Assembly: GCA_021513695.1 (NCBI GenBank)
Contig: CP084166.1
Location: 1,728,001 to 1,792,000, forward strand
Origin: Candidatus Heimdallarchaeum aukensis
GTDB taxonomy: Archaea; Asgardarchaeota; Heimdallarchaeia; Heimdallarchaeales; Heimdallarchaeaceae
Direction of reading: 5' to 3'
Length of the DNA stretch: 64,000 nucleotides
Shown here: positions 22,865 to 33,653 of the stretch, piece after piece
Position numbering within the stretch: position 1 is the stretch's first letter
Layout: each line of letters begins with the position of its first letter
The notes under the pieces: model-generated
Seen by the model: the letters and a program-made list of their open reading frames with translations, nothing else
What the model was told of the DNA's origin: nothing
The model's database searches: none
Program-made: the position numbers and the translations under genes

Positions 22865-23524
22865 TTAATATAGTTGTTCCAAGAGCCTATCAAGATGTTT
22901 TATCATTTCTTTTCTTAATACTTCTTTAGGTGGTTTTTCTAGAGTTTTAATAGCTGTCAAATCTTGTTCTAATATAATATGAGCTGCTATAGTACGAAGT
23001 ATATCATTGTACACACTTTCTGGAAGTTGATGTTCAACACTTGCTATAGGTTCTGCTTTGATCGTTTTTTTCTTTGCTCTAACCGTAGATTTAACAACAG
23101 CTTTTTCTTTTGGAACAATCATTTTTTCTCCAGAGACTAGTGCTCTTTCTTGTTCTTCTATTGCTTGAAAGGTTGTTTTTTCTGTCTTAATGTCTACTGG
23201 CTTCATTACCTCCCGTATTGTTTCTTTACCAAAATCTTCTAATTTTCCTGCAAATATCTCTTGCAATTTTTCTTCTGATTCTTCGTGCTCGATATTTACA
23301 ATCTTATACTTAGAAGAAAAGAATCTTGCATTTAGATTAGTTGCAGCTCTCCCTGCAGCATAAGCTAATGATCTGGTTATACCTGGTTTTCTGTATATCC
23401 AGATCTTTTTTGGTTCCCGAGCTAAAATTAAATATGCCCCATTACCTTTCTCCAAACTTGAAATATCAGCACCTACCTCTGAATAACTCCCATCTTTTTT
23501 TACCGAGAAGATTCTTATTGTCAT
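22865..23524 (-). CDS. gelsolin-like domain protein with C-terminal helical extension (putative Asgard gelsolin, 1-domain + X architecture)
   Basis: N-terminal ~100 aa align to a gelsolin repeat by eye: IRIFSVK.. / GAYLIL(DAYVIL) / IWIYRKPG..SLAYAAGRAATNLN (hYWhG..s..E.gaAA) / KIVNIEHEESEEKLQEIF (vqhREvqG.ES..F..yF); likely start is M9 of the track ORF. Confidence 0.4.
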   Translation of the reverse strand: MTIRIFSVKKDGSYSEVGADISSLEKGNGAYLILAREPKKIWIYRKPGITRSLAYAAGRAATNLNARFFSSKYKIVNIEHEESEEKLQEIFAGKLEDFGKETIREVMKPVDIKTEKTTFQAIEEQERALVSGEKMIVPKEKAVVKSTVRAKKKTIKAEPIASVEHQLPESVYNDILRTIAAHIILEQDLTAIKTLEKPPKEVLRKEMIKHLDRLLEQLY

Positions 23525-23607
23525 TGGATCCCCCTTAAAATTACACACTAGTAATATAATCAGAAGGGAATACTAAAATTTTTCCTTTTTTCTTCAAACT
23601 AAATGTA

Positions 23608-24327
23608 CTATTCTGCATAAAGAGTTTTATCTTCTATATTTGCATTTGAAAACGCTCTTTTTCTTCGTAAACAGCTTTCACATTTTCCGCAATGAATTGG
23701 TCTTCTATCTTTAGTCCATCCAGTAAGTCTGTAACATGAAGACGAAAACTCATATTTTGCACTTTTTTCATTTAGAAACAACACAATATCCTTTTTATCA
23801 GAAGCAATAAAAGGAGAAATAACTTTTACTTCATTCATACAACCAAGTTTCATAGCGGCATTCATTCGTTCAACAAAATCTTTGGTGTTGTCAGGAAAGG
23901 TTTCTCCCTCTTCTATATTTGCACCAAAGATGATATCTACTGTATTTTTTTCGCTGTCTGCTGCCGATGCAGCTATAGACAAAAATAGTAAATTTCTACC
24001 TGGAACCCACACTTTTTTTGCAGAATCTATGGTTATATCCTTGTCATCTAGTTTTTCAAATTCTTTAAATTCAGGGAGTTCTTCTACAGATTGAGAGAGA
24101 TTGGAACCTGCTTTAGCAGTAAACTCCTTTAGAAATGGCAGAGAGATAATTTTTGATTCTATAGAGAAAAAATCTGCAAATGTCTTATTAGTTCTCTCTA
24201 TTACTTCATCTTCTTTACTCCCATACAAGAATGATAGTAAAGAGACTGAATCATATTTTTCTAATGCCCAATACAAGCAAGCTGTAGAATCTAATCCTCC
24301 TGAAAATAATACTATGGCTTTTTTCAT
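23608..24327 (-). CDS. queC: 7-cyano-7-deazaguanine synthase
   Basis: PP-loop LFSGGLDST; C-terminal zinc Cys cluster CGKCESCLRRKRAF. Confidence 0.85.
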   Translation of the reverse strand: MKKAIVLFSGGLDSTACLYWALEKYDSVSLLSFLYGSKEDEVIERTNKTFADFFSIESKIISLPFLKEFTAKAGSNLSQSVEELPEFKEFEKLDDKDITIDSAKKVWVPGRNLLFLSIAASAADSEKNTVDIIFGANIEEGETFPDNTKDFVERMNAAMKLGCMNEVKVISPFIASDKKDIVLFLNEKSAKYEFSSSCYRLTGWTKDRRPIHCGKCESCLRRKRAFSNANIEDKTLYAE

Positions 24328-24366: not shown

Positions 24367-25710
24367 TTAATCCTTTCTCAATTTTACTATGAAAAAGCCT
24401 TCTGTATTATGTAAGCTAGGAGTTAACATTTGTGCTTTATTTTCAAGTGATTCTATTCTTATCCCTATCATCGGTTCCATTTTTTCGATACTAAAATTTG
24501 TGTTCTTGGAGAGAAACTCCTCTATTACATATACATTTTCATCTTTAAATATTGAACAAGTTGAGTAGGTAATTTCTCCTCCGTCCTTAAGTACTCTTGC
24601 TGATTCATCCAACAACTTCTTTTGAATAGCTGTATAAAATTTCAGATCTCTCTTTTCCAATCGAAATTTCGTTTCAGGCCGGGTAGAATAAGTCCCAGAA
24701 CCTGTACATGGCGGATCAAGAAGTATTTTGTTAAACTTATTATTGAATAAACTTGATATCATTCTTGAATCAGTGTTTATAATCTCAATTCCATTAACTC
24801 CTAGAAGATCCATTCTCTTTTTTAAGATAGATACTCTTCGTTCATTTAACTCACAAGCAAAAATATTGTTTCCTGAATTATTTAGTGCAGCTAAATGAGA
24901 AGTTTTTTGTCCTGGTGCAGCACATACATCTAGAATAAGATCATGAGGCTTTGGTTTTACGATTAAAGAAACCAATGCTGAAGATTTTTGTTGAATTACT
25001 ATTTTTCCATTTTTGAAAATATCTAATCTAGGAAGAGCTACTGGAGACTTTTTAATTTGTATTAAGTTTGGTATATCCTTATCAACTTCATATTCAATGT
25101 CAAAAGAGGTTAATACTTGCTCTATTTCCTTCATTTCAGATTTTAAGGTGTTTACCCTTATGTATGTCGGAAGAACAGTTTGGATAGAATTAAGAAAATC
25201 CAGTGAAAAGTTCTCTCCCCATTGAGAAAATAACTTTCTGATGATCCATGTTGGAGTGTAATATTTCAGGGATAATAGGCTGATTTCATCTTTATTTCTT
25301 TCTAACATCTGCATTGACACAGATTCAATATTCTTCACAATGCCTTCAAAATCAAAATTTTTGTTGTTATTGAAGAGAGTGTTGAACTCTTTTTTTATGT
25401 CTCCTAACATCGAACTGTACACTTGAGCATATTTAACAATAAAAGTGATTAAACGTAACAATGCCTTTTTTTCGAATGAGAGTTTCTTTAGTGAGAAATA
25501 AGAAGAACTTTCTTTTATATAAAGATCTATCACATTTAATTTCCCAATAATATTAAAAACGAAGTAGTATATCCTTGCTTCTTCATCTTTGTTCAATGTA
25601 TATTCAGATCTAACCCTATTCATTGCGTTTCGAATAGAATCTCCCTTTTCTACTTGAACCAATGCAGAAAGAATGGGTTTTATGATTATGTTCATGTCGC
25701 TCCCTCTCAT
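24367..25710 (-). CDS. NOL1/NOP2/Sun-family RNA cytosine-C5 methyltransferase (RsmB/NSUN-like)
   Basis: N-terminal NusB-like region; SAM motifs DVCAAPGQKTSHLA, DPPCTGSGT, catalytic Cys TCSI; TEGFFIVKL C-terminus. Confidence 0.8.
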   Translation of the reverse strand: MRGSDMNIIIKPILSALVQVEKGDSIRNAMNRVRSEYTLNKDEEARIYYFVFNIIGKLNVIDLYIKESSSYFSLKKLSFEKKALLRLITFIVKYAQVYSSMLGDIKKEFNTLFNNNKNFDFEGIVKNIESVSMQMLERNKDEISLLSLKYYTPTWIIRKLFSQWGENFSLDFLNSIQTVLPTYIRVNTLKSEMKEIEQVLTSFDIEYEVDKDIPNLIQIKKSPVALPRLDIFKNGKIVIQQKSSALVSLIVKPKPHDLILDVCAAPGQKTSHLAALNNSGNNIFACELNERRVSILKKRMDLLGVNGIEIINTDSRMISSLFNNKFNKILLDPPCTGSGTYSTRPETKFRLEKRDLKFYTAIQKKLLDESARVLKDGGEITYSTCSIFKDENVYVIEEFLSKNTNFSIEKMEPMIGIRIESLENKAQMLTPSLHNTEGFFIVKLRKD

Positions 25711-25734: not shown

Positions 25735-26544
25735 TTAGTATTGGTCATAATCATGAGGAGTTTTTAATTTTATTGAATCTTGAGGGAGAAATAGCGTTGG
25801 TATCTCAACATCCAGCTGAATTGTTTGTGCAAGTTTTCTAAGTAATATATTCAAATAGTCAATGTGGTTCAAATATATTAGGTTTAAGTTTGCCTTTTTG
25901 TACAAAGGCAACTTTTGTGAATTTATATGAAAAGAGATTACAGTATCCACACCCGAATCCTTTATTACAAATATATCATCTATGGTAAATGGAGCAGAAG
26001 GATTTTCTACAATTAGTTTGGAGTTATCATCTTTCAAATCTAAAGACACCCAATTTTTTGAGAGATGAGAGAGAGATGTCATGAATTCGTCAAAAGAAAT
26101 AGGTGATACAGAGAATATTGTACTATTAGAATTATGTAAAGTGATAGGTTCTTCATCGAGATAATTCATCCCAATTGTATTTAGAAAATACTGAAAACCA
26201 GTTTTAAACAGCCAACTACGTGAAATATTGATTGTAATAATATTGTTAATTGCTAATGTCCTTATTAATTCATATTCTTTATCAATAAGCTGACCTTTCT
26301 CAGCCTTTGCAAAAGGTATAGACTCTGCTTTTAATACAAGATTCAATTTGTTTTCTAACATAAAACCGATATTGCTATTCGAAAAATAAGGAGTAACTAA
26401 TATACCAGATACATGAAGAGCTTTCAATCTTTCTTCATTAGTTGGAGCAAACTCAACAATAAAAGCTTGAGAGGACATATTATCAGTAATAAATGTTCTC
26501 TTGAGCTGTTTAAGAAATTGATAGAGTGAAGTGACCATGAACAA
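25735..26544 (-). CDS. hypothetical protein (gene Y of the 7-deazaguanine operon)
   Basis: ORF embedded between queD and the NSUN methyltransferase on the same strand with short gaps; no motif recognised. Confidence 0.3.
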   Translation of the reverse strand: MFMVTSLYQFLKQLKRTFITDNMSSQAFIVEFAPTNEERLKALHVSGILVTPYFSNSNIGFMLENKLNLVLKAESIPFAKAEKGQLIDKEYELIRTLAINNIITINISRSWLFKTGFQYFLNTIGMNYLDEEPITLHNSNSTIFSVSPISFDEFMTSLSHLSKNWVSLDLKDDNSKLIVENPSAPFTIDDIFVIKDSGVDTVISFHINSQKLPLYKKANLNLIYLNHIDYLNILLRKLAQTIQLDVEIPTLFLPQDSIKLKTPHDYDQY

Positions 26545-26590: not shown

Positions 26591-27052
26591 TTATTCAGAA
26601 AAAACAGCTATACTTGTTGGAGTTTCCGATATAGAAACTGTGATTTTTAATTCTGGATAATTTTCTTTAATTAGATTATGGATATATCTTGCTAACAATT
26701 CTGCAGTAGTAGCTTCAATAGGAAGAATCAGCACATCTTCTTTTGGAAAACGATAATATTTATTTTCTGTAGTTAAAATTTTTACTTCCCGTTCATCAGT
26801 GGTTATATTAAATTCTTTACTATGTAAAGGCACTAGTACCTTATGATCAAATTGTTTTACGATGTTCTTAACTTTAGTTTTAAATTCTCCAAAATCTACC
26901 ACCATCTTTTTTTCATTTAACTGACCTTCGGCCTCAACCTTTAATCTATAGTTGTGCCCATGCAATCTAGAGCACTTATCATGGTGAGACAATATATGAG
27001 CTGCTGAAAACGAAAGTTTATCTCCTGAAATTTGTATCTTCATTTTTATCAC
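26591..27052 (-). CDS. queD: 6-carboxy-5,6,7,8-tetrahydropterin synthase
   Basis: AAHILSHHDKCSRLHGHNYRLKV (Cys-His-His zinc/catalytic motif of QueD/PTPS family); 153 aa. Confidence 0.85.
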   Translation of the reverse strand: MIKMKIQISGDKLSFSAAHILSHHDKCSRLHGHNYRLKVEAEGQLNEKKMVVDFGEFKTKVKNIVKQFDHKVLVPLHSKEFNITTDEREVKILTTENKYYRFPKEDVLILPIEATTAELLARYIHNLIKENYPELKITVSISETPTSIAVFSE

Positions 27053-27672
27053 TTGATTACTCTTGTTTTAACAATGTCATGTTTAACTTTATCTATTTCT
27101 TGAACATATTTTTTTGCTACAGAAATCGCGAATGACAATAGCTCTTCCTCTGAGAAACCTATTTCTTTTAAGCCTATTGCTTGAACATGGTTAGGCACTC
27201 CATCACTTGAGATGTTTATTCCAAAATGAATTTTTCCGCTATTTCCTCCTATTGTTGCAATACCCACATTTAGTTTTTTTCCATTAACGTAAATATCAGT
27301 TCCTTTACGTTGAATTAAGTTAACACCTTTTTCAACTAATGATTCTATAACAACAATTGTTAAAATTCTAAGTCTATAATACATAATTTCTAGATTTGGT
27401 GGCTGAACATCAAATTCTTCAACTATAAAATGAATTGCATCATCAGAACTAATTAGAACTTTAGCTAAATGAAATTCATTTAAAATATCTTTTAGATCAA
27501 GCATTTCTTTTGGGGTTAGTTTCATATCACCTCTAAATATAAGTACACTATTTCCAGGAACATTATAGTGTTCATATGTGTATAGAGACTGAATCTGTGA
27601 ACCATCGTAGCATATCTTTTCATTGAAATCCAGATATTTGATTGTATAATCTTCTAGTTTTTCTTCACTCAT
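27049..27672 (-). CDS. hypothetical protein (gene X of the 7-deazaguanine operon; possible BPL/LplA-like fold)
   Basis: Overlaps folE2 stop by 8 nt and queD start by 4 nt (translational coupling); segment KGTDIYVNGKKLNVGIATIGGNSGKIHFGINI weakly resembles biotin/lipoate-protein-ligase catalytic motif. Confidence 0.3.
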   Translation of the reverse strand: MSEEKLEDYTIKYLDFNEKICYDGSQIQSLYTYEHYNVPGNSVLIFRGDMKLTPKEMLDLKDILNEFHLAKVLISSDDAIHFIVEEFDVQPPNLEIMYYRLRILTIVVIESLVEKGVNLIQRKGTDIYVNGKKLNVGIATIGGNSGKIHFGINISSDGVPNHVQAIGLKEIGFSEEELLSFAISVAKKYVQEIDKVKHDIVKTRVIK

Positions 27673-29564: not shown

Positions 29565-30398
29565 TCACTCATATTTTCTTTTAATTGCTGACAATACTCT
29601 TTCTTGCCAGTCAACTAGCTTTTCAGCGAGCTCTTTATGTAAATCGGGGTGTAAGGGGGCATCAGCTTTAAGTTTATCTATTTTTTTCAACCAACTATTA
29701 ATTTCATACAACATTGGGCTCATGCCCACGCTCGTTTCTACTTCATCACGCAACTCTTCAAGGTACTTTAGAACAGAGCTAGATATGGATTGTGGACTTA
29801 TCATTTGAGATATGTGTTTAAACTTATTCTTTATTGCGTCCATTGCAACTTGTGCATCAGCAGCAGCAGTAGAGATAACAGGTTCTTCTGCTATTCCGGG
29901 TGAGGTATATTCTGTACTAGTTTCTTTTTGGGGAGCATGTTCTTTTATCTCAAAATCATTGTTAAGTACTTCAGAACTAGATAAAGTAGTTGCAGGGGTA
30001 GGCTCTGAAGGAACTGGTTTAGGTTCAATCTTTTTAGAAATTTCTTGTTTTGATGCAACCTCAACTAATTTTTTATCAAGATTTGCAGTTAATTGCTCAA
30101 TCTTTGTTTCTAAAATTCCTAAAATATTTCGAATTGAAGGTATATCTGTAAGATATTGTAAATTTTCCAAGGAACCATTTGCTAATTTATCACTAACAAG
30201 AGAAAAAGTTTCGATCTTAGTTTTTATGTCATCAACTTTTGCATTCAATTCATTTAAATTAAATCCTGCTATTTGTTTCTCAAAATTTGATAATTGTTCA
30301 GAAAAATGACTTATTGTATTTTGAATTGCGTTTACAGATTCTGCTAGGGTGTTGATTGAATTAACTAATTCTACAAGTTTATTTTCAACATCACTCAT
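29565..30398 (-). CDS. hypothetical coiled-coil protein
   Basis: N-terminal ~120 aa heptad repeats, central P/S/T-rich linker, C-terminal helical region. Confidence 0.35.
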   Translation of the reverse strand: MSDVENKLVELVNSINTLAESVNAIQNTISHFSEQLSNFEKQIAGFNLNELNAKVDDIKTKIETFSLVSDKLANGSLENLQYLTDIPSIRNILGILETKIEQLTANLDKKLVEVASKQEISKKIEPKPVPSEPTPATTLSSSEVLNNDFEIKEHAPQKETSTEYTSPGIAEEPVISTAAADAQVAMDAIKNKFKHISQMISPQSISSSVLKYLEELRDEVETSVGMSPMLYEINSWLKKIDKLKADAPLHPDLHKELAEKLVDWQERVLSAIKRKYE

Positions 30399-30967: not shown

Positions 30968-31438
30968 ATGAGCTTGGATGAAGAAGAATTTTTTGCAAGA
31001 TTAGCTATTGAAGCAAATGAATTAAAACGTGAGCTTCCTACTTTTAAACCAGTTGATGGAGATATGACTCATTTACGTGGATTTATTTTTGGAACAGGAC
31101 TTTATGAAGGAGGAGTATTTGTTTTAGACATAATCATCCCTAGAGAATACCCATTTAAACCACCAAAAGTAGAATGTTTAACAAAAATTTTTCATCCTAA
31201 CTTCTTTAATAGAAGAATTTGTGTAGGGGTTTTAGGCGCAGATTGGACACCAGCAAATAACCTTGTTGATGTAATTGAGAGCATACGATTTTTGCTTGGT
31301 GAACCAAATCCTGACGATCCTTTAAATTCCACGGCAGCCAACTTAATGAAAAGAGATCTTAAAGCATTTGAACAAAAAGCCAGAGAATACGTGGAAAAAT
31401 ACGCATCATTTAGTCAAATACAAGAATATGGTTTATAA
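30968..31438 (+). CDS. Ubiquitin-conjugating enzyme E2 (UBC fold)
   Basis: HPN motif and active-site Cys: KIFHPNFFNRRICVGVL; downstream W..A..L..V..SI..LL.EPNPDDPLN pattern typical of UBC domain. Confidence 0.8.
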   Translation: MSLDEEEFFARLAIEANELKRELPTFKPVDGDMTHLRGFIFGTGLYEGGVFVLDIIIPREYPFKPPKVECLTKIFHPNFFNRRICVGVLGADWTPANNLVDVIESIRFLLGEPNPDDPLNSTAANLMKRDLKAFEQKAREYVEKYASFSQIQEYGL

Positions 31439-32357: not shown

Positions 32358-33653
32358 TTATTCTGCATCCACACAACCTTCAGGAGTAATGGCGAAGATA
32401 GCCTCTGATTCTGGTAAAACAGGAGAGTCATAGACTCGAATGATTCTCTTTTCCCCCTTGCTTTTTCTTAGATAAAACCTTGTTGTAGCCCAGTGACCCA
32501 TAATGTTTCCTCCTATTGCTTGAGTTGGATCACCAAAAAAAGCTCCAGGATTTGATTGTACTTGATTCGTTATAACCACTGCAACATTATATGTGTCAGC
32601 TATTCTTCCTAGAATTCCTAAGTGGTAGTTCATAGTTTGCTGTCTTTCTGCTAATGTTCCTCTTCCTGCATATTCTGCTCGAAAGTGTGCTGTTGCAGAG
32701 TCAACAACCACAAGTCCATATTCATCTTTTTGGTTGAAAAACAGCTCTAACAGTCTTTCTGATAAAGTCATTTGATGGTCAGAATTATATGCCCTTGCAT
32801 AACTAATATCCTTTAACACATCTTCGAAAGATTTTTTCCATCCTAATTCTCTTTGAAAACGTTCATGGATTGCTTTTATTCTACTTGGCGAGAAGGTTCC
32901 TTCTGTATCAATAAACACCGCTTTCTTTCCAGCTCCTCCTAATTCAACTGGTAGTTGTACAGTAACGCAAAGTTGGTGACAAAGTTGAGATTTTCCTGAC
33001 CTAAATGGCCCAAAAAGTTCTATGGTTTCACCAAGTCTTACACCAGAAACCCCGAGTTCATCAATCGTAGTTAATGCATCAATGTTTTTTACACCATACG
33101 TAAAACTAAGAATAGATTTTTGCTTTTCTAAGACATCCAAAGCGTTAACAAACTCTATTCCTCCACGAAGTTCTTTTAACGCCTCTTTATATTTTTGTGC
33201 TGCAACAGCAGTTATACCATATTTTTCTTCTAATTCTCTAATTGGAGTTGTTTCTATTAAGTAGACATTAAGTCCTTTTTCTCTTAATGTTTCAGCAGTT
33301 TTTCCACCAATACCTGGTATGTCCTCTAAGTTTATTTCTTCTTTAAAATACTTATATTTAGGAACCATTTTCTTGATAGCTTCACGAATCTTTTTAGCTG
33401 TAGCTCTTTTTACACCCATAGATTGAAGTTCAAGAAGACTTGTTGTCATTATCTGATCGACATTTGTTATATTATTTTCTTCAAGAATCTTTGCTGTCTT
33501 ATCTCCAAGTCCAGGGATATCTTTTAGTGAAATACTTTCTATATCCACAAAAGATTCATCATTTTCTTTTTTTTCGTCAATAGATTCCTCATAGAACTCT
33601 TCAGCTTCCTTTACAAGATCTTCATTTTCATCTTTCTTACTCATATTTTGCAC
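32358..33653 (-). CDS. radA: DNA repair and recombination protein RadA (Rad51/RecA family) with extended N-terminus
   Basis: Walker A GPFRSGKSQLCHQL, Walker B VVVDS; N-terminal acidic tail plus two HhH-containing segments (IPGLGDKTAKIL..., IPGIGGKTAETL...). Confidence 0.85.
   Translation of the reverse strand: MQNMSKKDENEDLVKEAEEFYEESIDEKKENDESFVDIESISLKDIPGLGDKTAKILEENNITNVDQIMTTSLLELQSMGVKRATAKKIREAIKKMVPKYKYFKEEINLEDIPGIGGKTAETLREKGLNVYLIETTPIRELEEKYGITAVAAQKYKEALKELRGGIEFVNALDVLEKQKSILSFTYGVKNIDALTTIDELGVSGVRLGETIELFGPFRSGKSQLCHQLCVTVQLPVELGGAGKKAVFIDTEGTFSPSRIKAIHERFQRELGWKKSFEDVLKDISYARAYNSDHQMTLSERLLELFFNQKDEYGLVVVDSATAHFRAEYAGRGTLAERQQTMNYHLGILGRIADTYNVAVVITNQVQSNPGAFFGDPTQAIGGNIMGHWATTRFYLRKSKGEKRIIRVYDSPVLPESEAIFAITPEGCVDAE

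Follow-up and report, generated by a model that had tools for sequence, protein, structure and literature searches.

A DUF366-family protein with a biotin/lipoate-ligase fold in the preQ0 gene cluster of an Asgard archaeon, and its association with a divergent type of QueC

Introduction

The nucleobase 7-cyano-7-deazaguanine (preQ0) feeds the synthesis of archaeosine in archaea and of queuosine in bacteria, and the route leading to it underlies these two tRNA modifications, 7-deazaguanine DNA modification and the deazapurine antibiotics. The route from GTP to preQ0 is regarded as fully solved with four enzymes. Its carboxylate intermediates are 6-carboxytetrahydropterin (CPH4) and 7-carboxy-7-deazaguanine (CDG), and the canonical QueC, which carries a YPDC motif, converts CDG first into the amide and then into the nitrile alone, with ATP and ammonia. 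Carboxylates are likewise handled by biotin protein ligases (BPLs), by the lipoate ligase LplA and by the class II aminoacyl-tRNA synthetase-like AsnA, whose fold takes up a carboxylate, activates it as the adenylate and transfers it to an amine. Here we describe a gene, referred to as gene X, that lies among preQ0 genes in the Asgard archaeon Candidatus Heimdallarchaeum aukensis. The stretch analysed, hereafter the window, comprises 64,000 nucleotides of contig CP084166.1 (positions 1,728,001 to 1,792,000). The product of gene X has a ligase-like fold and belongs to DUF366, a family whose genes are conserved in the preQ0 biosynthetic cluster and transcribed together with it.

The gene family itself is already known, being catalogued as DUF366 with a crystal structure. 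A literature search for DUF366, COG2029, PF04017, 2DDZ and PH0223 returned nothing functional, and DUF366 is mentioned neither in a 2026 preprint on the QueC family (PMC13082051) nor in a deazaguanine review, a deazapurine genome-mining preprint or a Thermococcus kodakarensis transposon screen. New are the linkage to the pathway, the homology to ligases at the sequence level and the covariation with a divergent QueC, which together point to a five-component variant of the pathway.

Gene X is a member of DUF366

Gene X codes for a full-length member of the Pfam family DUF366 (PF04017; E 7.5e-57, 192.2 bits against a cut-off of 29.9), its residues 15-204 covering positions 5-184 of the 184-position model. 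It matches PH0223 of Pyrococcus horikoshii, the protein whose structure was solved for the family (2DDZ), with E 6e-32 and shares its fold, and the database entry of an identical protein, from Candidatus Heimdallarchaeum aukensis, bears the name 'DUF366 family protein'. A previous interpretation made from the letters alone (hereafter the sequence-only reading) had presented the gene as an unknown; it is no orphan, its family having been catalogued before. An exhaustive search with a hidden Markov model (HMM) retrieved 707 DUF366 clusters at 50% identity, nearly all of them single-domain proteins of about 185-200 aa, and a word-indexed search at least 5,579 clusters at 90% identity. The source names of the latter clusters are all 'DUF366 family protein', 'DUF366 domain-containing protein', 'uncharacterized' or 'hypothetical', and NCBIfam holds no model for the family.

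Conservation was measured over 159 sequences, i.e. gene X and 158 full-length relatives. Residues G48, D59, K133, H149 and N153 are invariant, while Y22, G24, D62, I74, E85, D126, A139 and K202 are conserved in at least 95% of the sequences. Gene X possesses all of these invariant and near-invariant residues.

DUF366 genes accompany preQ0 genes in archaea and bacteria

Eighty loci bearing a DUF366 motif were collected from unrelated organisms, including Methanobacteria, Hydrothermarchaeota, Desulfosporosinus, Syntrophomonas, Desulfotomaculum, Gastranaerophilales/Melainabacteria, Armatimonadota, WS1 and Margulisiibacteriota, and were scanned with HMMs built from the Que proteins of the window. 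The DUF366 gene is directly adjoined by queC, queD or queE on the same strand in 72 of the 80 loci, and of the eight others, four lie on short or truncated contigs. No fewer than four gene orders were found, in two domains of life. The order is DUF366-queD-queE in Methanobacteria, queC-DUF366 in Melainabacteria, queC-DUF366-queE-queD in Methanolobus psychrophilus, and queD-queC-DUF366-queE followed by a gene read as folE (GTP cyclohydrolase I) in Firmicutes. Hydrothermarchaeota share with the window the order (queC)-queE-mptA-DUF366-queD. Heimdall relatives have queE-mptA-DUF366-queD-queC or, on one contig, an ArcTGT-like gene near DUF366-queD.

The few loci that have no que gene nearby (L009, L030, L053 and L059) are what one would expect if DUF366 had an unrelated housekeeping role and lay beside these genes fortuitously. 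Such an explanation is hardly credible, for the genes have stayed neighbours in at least four independent arrangements, archaeal and bacterial, and three gene fusions reinforce this adjacency. The functional link to deazapurine genes put forward in the sequence-only reading is therefore borne out by the recurrence of queE-mptA-X-queD, by the 72 loci and by these three fusions to QueC, and no confident assignment to an unrelated housekeeping family emerged.

Several of these loci show further particularities. In Methanolobus psychrophilus R15 (L173, 8506-10482), two more genes come after the cluster, one coding for a second radical SAM protein (312 aa) and the other AIRS/PurM-like (325 aa); a second QueE-like radical SAM gene also lies downstream in several metagenome loci (L110, L111, L117). 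Clp_N domains are found at the N-terminus of adjacent QueD and QueC proteins (L169, 4058-6197) and, on another metagenomic contig, on a DUF366 protein followed by queE (L172, 305-1348); this adaptor shared by three pathway proteins is unexplained. DUF366 is essentially absent from phages, a single tblastn match having been obtained in the phage collection. That match (L081; MW495066.1, 'Microcystis phage MaAM05', 110408-122974) is surrounded by glyS, mtgA, fabI and engB, and a phage or defence role was dropped since these flanking genes look like those of a bacterial chromosome.

DUF366 is associated with a divergent type of QueC

Three natural proteins (P0121, P0282 and P0283) consist of QueC fused to DUF366, the latter two being only 35-36% identical to the first. 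The canonical QueC signature comprises SGGxDS, YxQxHxxE, VPxRN, YPDC and Cx8CxxCxxC, with Y35, R99 and Y131 essential, and the YxQxHxxE and YPDC motifs lie where the substrate pocket opens (PMC13082051, 2026 preprint). The 40 QueCs that adjoin DUF366, archaeal and bacterial alike, all carry FPDN instead of YPDC (in three cases as FSDN or FTDN), YGQ[KR][AS]xxxE, devoid of His, instead of YxQxHxxE, and mostly VPNRN. Among these 40 proteins, DUF366 is associated exclusively with FPDN-type QueC. The same type is found in all three fusion proteins and in 118 of 120 close QueC relatives.

This association was tested independently on 80 metagenome loci picked by the motifs of FPDN-type QueC alone, a locus counting as informative when queC was flanked by 700 nt or more on each side. 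DUF366 is present in 57 of the 80 loci and in 39 of the 53 informative ones (74%), nearly always immediately downstream of queC. For comparison, canonical QueC has queD as a neighbour in 33% and queE in 26% of cases (PMC13082051).

The window encodes a QueC of the FPDN type with YGSKEDEV (neither Gln nor His), VPGRN, FPDN and Cx14CxxCxxC, which barely passes the TIGR00364 cut-off (151 bits against 150.3). It strays from the canonical signature further than other QueCs of this type.

DUF366 has the fold and the active-site motif of the BPL/LplA/LipB superfamily

Structure prediction followed by fold comparison, as the sequence-only reading had proposed, places gene X in the BPL/LplA/LipB superfamily, the protein having the catalytic-domain fold. 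The structure comparison value reaches 13.4 for LipB (2QHT), 11.9-13.1 for biotin protein ligases (with one at 9.4), 9.9-11.3 for LplA-type ligases and lipoyltransferases, and about 7.7 for class II aminoacyl-tRNA synthetases. The relationship is also detected by sequence: a profile of 42 DUF366 members matches the BPL of Aquifex aeolicus with E 4.5e-4, and hhalign aligns DUF366 with three BPLs over 152 columns (E 2.5e-5). Pfam scans of the 42 members as single sequences, at E up to 10, gave one stray LplA-B_cat match only. The ligase homology of DUF366 is thus visible only by profile, hhalign or structure.

In the alignment, the DUF366 motif 'R.GdD.y....KKLsVsIAT......IHfGiN' falls on the BPL motif 'KWPNDvy...KKVSGvL.E....IVGIGIN'. 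K133, on the strand after the '..ND.y' turn, coincides with the lysine of KKVSG in the Aquifex BPL and of RKLAG in BirA. Since both motifs are superposed, K133 is the catalytic lysine of the superfamily, D126 the Asp of WPND and N153 the Asn of GIN. A weak BirA/LplA resemblance had been noticed in this part of gene X from its sequence; it proves well founded, and the segment then quoted is the very one that superposes on the BPL motif.

A possible role at the QueC step

We tentatively favour the reading that DUF366 assists FPDN-type QueC as an accessory subunit and acts on CDG, its adenylate or its amide, because its fold activates carboxylates for transfer to amines and the carboxylate of CDG must become an amide, and because the pocket mouth of FPDN-type QueC lacks the canonical His and Cys. 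The ligase-like pocket would bind CDG, or the CDG adenylate or amide, through K133, D126 and N153 of the superfamily together with the family-specific H149, D59/D62 and E85. DUF366 would thereby help or complete the ATP- and ammonia-dependent conversion of CDG into the amide (ADG) and then into the nitrile preQ0, either as a catalytic partner, in adenylation or amidation, or as a subunit presenting the substrate to QueC. An acidic loop with the family consensus MVDxED, in which D59 is conserved in 100% and D62 in 98% of the 159 sequences, takes the place of an Arg-rich loop of BPLs and might recognise the deazaguanine ring by its 2-amino-pyrimidinone face; the confidence of the predicted model (pLDDT) is lower there, at 71-75.

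A stronger version of this proposal, which we consider rather unlikely, is a two-protein nitrile synthetase in which DUF366 would adenylate CDG and amidate it to ADG, or would give catalytic residues in trans, and FPDN-type QueC, devoid of the canonical pocket His and Cys, would perform only the ATP-dependent dehydration that yields the nitrile. If it were true, the four-enzyme pathway would describe YPDC-type lineages only, and DUF366 would be a fifth preQ0 enzyme, used in most archaea and many anaerobic bacteria.

Several observations weigh against a role as QueC subunit. Fourteen of the 53 informative FPDN-QueC loci have no adjacent DUF366. No alignment column distinguishes the FPDN-type QueCs with an adjacent DUF366 from those without, and in the latter loci no substitute conserved neighbour was found; the DUF366 gene may be elsewhere in these genomes, or be dispensable. 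An AlphaFold2 model of a natural fusion shows confident domains joined by a disordered linker (predicted template-modelling score 0.68) and supports no fixed interface, nor does it speak against one. The nucleotide- and carboxylate-binding GRGRxGR loop of BPLs is not conserved, so that ATP binding by DUF366 is putative. Canonical QueC carries out both half-reactions alone, and a helper is therefore not chemically required. Adjacency by itself gives no indication of the step that DUF366 serves. The gene adjoins queD-queE rather than queC in Methanobacteria and lies between mptA and queD in the window. The sources searched contain neither biochemical nor genetic data for any DUF366 protein.

The latter positions would suit a role at the pterin step, with QueD or QueE, DUF366 binding or processing CPH4, dihydroneopterin triphosphate (H2NTP) or the cyclic phosphate made by MptA. 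The gene is found between mptA and queD in Hydrothermarchaeota as well, queC lies elsewhere in the Methanobacteria, the DUF366-queD pair stands beside the ArcTGT-like gene on one Heimdall contig, and D59, D62 and E85 would presumably suit a pterin as well as a deazaguanine. Such a role nevertheless appears unlikely. The three fusions found with a pathway enzyme are all to QueC, and the covariation found is with the QueC subtype. Moreover, DUF366 occurs with a gene read as FolE as well as with MptA, and is therefore not tied to the archaeal cyclic-phosphate problem.

It is also conceivable, and in our analysis somewhat doubtful, that DUF366 is a degenerate, non-catalytic ligase domain, which would bind an intermediate or preQ0. 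It would then act as a feedback sensor, or connect QueE, QueC and QueD in the manner of a chaperone, channel or scaffold. The relation of HisZ to class II aminoacyl-tRNA synthetases is the model for this possibility. The catalytic Lys and the His, Asn and Asp are, however, invariant even among relatives with more than 50% divergence, a pattern that suits an active site better than a scaffold, and the fusion model offers no confidently predicted interface for a subunit of this kind.

Organization of the locus

The features of the window are listed in Table 1. The window is AT-rich (33% G+C). The block on the minus strand reads queE-like, mptA-type cyclohydrolase, gene X and queD, then a 269-aa open reading frame (ORF), an RsmB/F-like methyltransferase gene and queC. 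The ORF of gene X stands as the sequence-only reading had drawn it. That reading had described overlaps of the ATGA type with both neighbours. Upstream, the overlap of start and stop is real, measuring 8 nt instead of the 4 nt of an ATGA. Downstream, coupling hinges on the start of queD: the TGA stop of gene X (27049-27051) shares 4 nt (GTGA) with queD only if the GTG at 27052 is the start codon, whereas public gene calls start queD at the ATG at 27043 (150 aa), leaving a 5-nt gap. The queE stop and the mptA start are 8 nt apart. Whichever queD start applies, gene X is confirmed to be tightly packed with queE, mptA and queD as one transcription unit, and this packing suggests the stoichiometric co-expression that had been proposed. 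A scan of the window for sigma-70 promoters and terminators gave matches below shuffle expectation, the sigma-70 model not being meaningful for an archaeon.

The neighbours had been named FolE2 and QueD. Both families hold; the upstream gene, on the other hand, passes the NCBIfam cut-off of the MptA equivalog TIGR00294 (270 bits against 220) and not that of FolE2 (164 against 215). The best NCBIfam matches of QueD are 6PTHBS and QueD, both below cut-off, in keeping with the PTPS/QueD family. Those of the QueE-like protein are QueE models, every one below its cut-off, and the position of its gene is kept in relatives.

Table 1. Coordinates of gene X, its motifs and the surrounding genes in the window
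Feature	Coordinates	Strand	Basis or remark
RadA, upstream of the cluster	32358-33653	-	
Ubiquitin-conjugating (E2/UBC) domain protein	30968-31438	+	Upstream of the cluster
277-aa protein	29565-30398	-	Directly upstream of queE
QueE-like radical SAM enzyme, 274 aa	28636..29460	-	Radical_SAM and Fer4_12 matches; first gene of the tight block
FolE2/MptA-family GTP cyclohydrolase, 320 aa	27665..28627	-	PF02649, 213 bits
8-nt overlap ATGAGTGA, mptA stop and gene X start	27665..27672	-	
Gene X, DUF366-family protein, 207 aa, BPL/LplA/LipB-like fold	27049..27672	-	ATG start
Acidic loop D59-x-x-D62, at the position of BPL GRGRxGR	27487..27498	-	hhalign against BirA
Superfamily active-site motif, residues 123-154, KGTDIYVNGKKLNVGIATIGGNSGKIHFGINI	27211..27306	-	R122/G124/D126, K133, H149, N153
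queD (6-carboxytetrahydropterin synthase)	26591..27052 (GTG start) or 26591..27043 (ATG start)	-	PF01242, 96.7 bits
269-aa ORF	25735-26544	-	No Pfam or NCBIfam match
RsmB/F-like methyltransferase	24367-25710	-	
queC, divergent FPDN subtype	23608..24327	-	PF06508, 178.7 bits
227-aa ORF (219 aa in public gene calls)	22865-23548	-	No family match; directly downstream of queC
2x[4Fe-4S] ferredoxin and nitroreductase-family domain fusion, 294 aa	21963-22847	+	Adjoins the que cluster

The 269-aa ORF and the methyltransferase gene separate queD from queC. In a relative, Heimdall AB_125 (L165), this pair is found downstream of queC and on the other strand, and a local inversion therefore split the que cluster. 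The same relative has a 199-aa gene without match at the position of the 227-aa ORF, which could be a lineage-specific member of the cluster. Synteny of the gene for the ferredoxin-nitroreductase fusion is kept in further contigs of this organism. At the other end, the 277-aa protein has no significant Pfam match, is of low-complexity composition and is possibly a coiled coil; the AT-rich spacer of about 100 nt between its gene and queE could hold the operon promoter. Farther upstream, the position of the E2/UBC gene is kept in relatives, and its presence together with that of RadA fits an Asgard origin.

Comparison with known systems

The closest described protein is 2DDZ (PH0223), the structural-genomics representative of PF04017, relative to which gene X is extended by about 10 residues at the N-terminus and has a longer loop at residues 66-73. 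Its depositors labelled it 'hypothetical protein', and neither protein is named by function. A protein family whose crystal structure has stood unannotated since 2007 thus acquires a concrete function to test.

Biotin protein ligases (the catalytic domain of BirA, the Aquifex aeolicus BPL 2EAY and the P. horikoshii BPL 1WNL) possess a GRGRxGRxW loop for biotin and ATP. In gene X the aligned residues 53-66 contain neither a conserved Arg nor a Gly-Arg repeat, and the acidic MVDxED is found instead. BPLs also have a C-terminal SH3-like cap, whereas gene X ends with one long helix (residues 175-201) after the strands of the catalytic domain; it has no DNA-binding domain either. His149 of gene X is a Gly in BPLs, and the gene is not encoded near biotin-dependent carboxylases. 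As regards LplA (2ARS, 4TVW), the RRxxGGGxV(F/Y)HD loop cannot be read in the 207 residues of gene X, no comparison with an LplA profile having been made, and these residues form a single domain without the accessory one. Gene X lacks the acyl-enzyme Cys and the RGGxxTxHxPGQ motif of LipB (2QHT, 1W66), no Cys is conserved among the 159 DUF366 sequences, and the hhalign comparison with LipB is not significant (E 0.038, probability 1.4%). Since the defining features of BPL, LplA and LipB are absent, DUF366 is a separate member of the superfamily, and neither a biotin nor a lipoate ligase.

These differences also bear on the idea that DUF366 is a genuine ligase of another specificity, which would join an acyl group, CDG or another, to an amine of a protein or of a small molecule and so divert part of the pathway from archaeosine (G+) and queuosine (Q) in tRNA. 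The fold with its conserved catalytic Lys speaks for such an activity, which would resemble lysine acylation by BPL and LplA or carboxydeazaguanylation by the QueC-like QatC and Cap9; QueC-family enzymes ligate CDG to protein N-termini (PMC13082051). We nonetheless hold it to be highly improbable, as there is neither a BPL cap domain nor a LipB-type Cys, no conserved gene for an acceptor protein accompanies DUF366 in the loci examined, and the family, essentially absent from phages and from defence-like contexts, sits in plain housekeeping preQ0 operons.

At the level of the fold, DUF366 is distantly related to AsnA, which makes an amide from a carboxylate, ATP and ammonia, and to the HisZ-HisG system; the analogy with both would be a mechanistic one.

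The window and the related loci contain the same four families as the preQ0 pathway of Escherichia coli and Bacillus subtilis (FolE, QueD, QueE and QueC). Compared to that pathway, the window adds a conserved DUF366 protein, and it has an FPDN-type QueC without the signature His and a cyclohydrolase of the MptA type. A fifth conserved family implies a catalytic or accessory step so far unrecognised, or a pathway complex, and bears on the annotation of QueC homologues and on their uses, nitrile-forming biocatalysis being one. Overall, many archaea and anaerobic bacteria may use a fifth component for a route described with four enzymes, and the window places this five-component variant in Asgard archaea.

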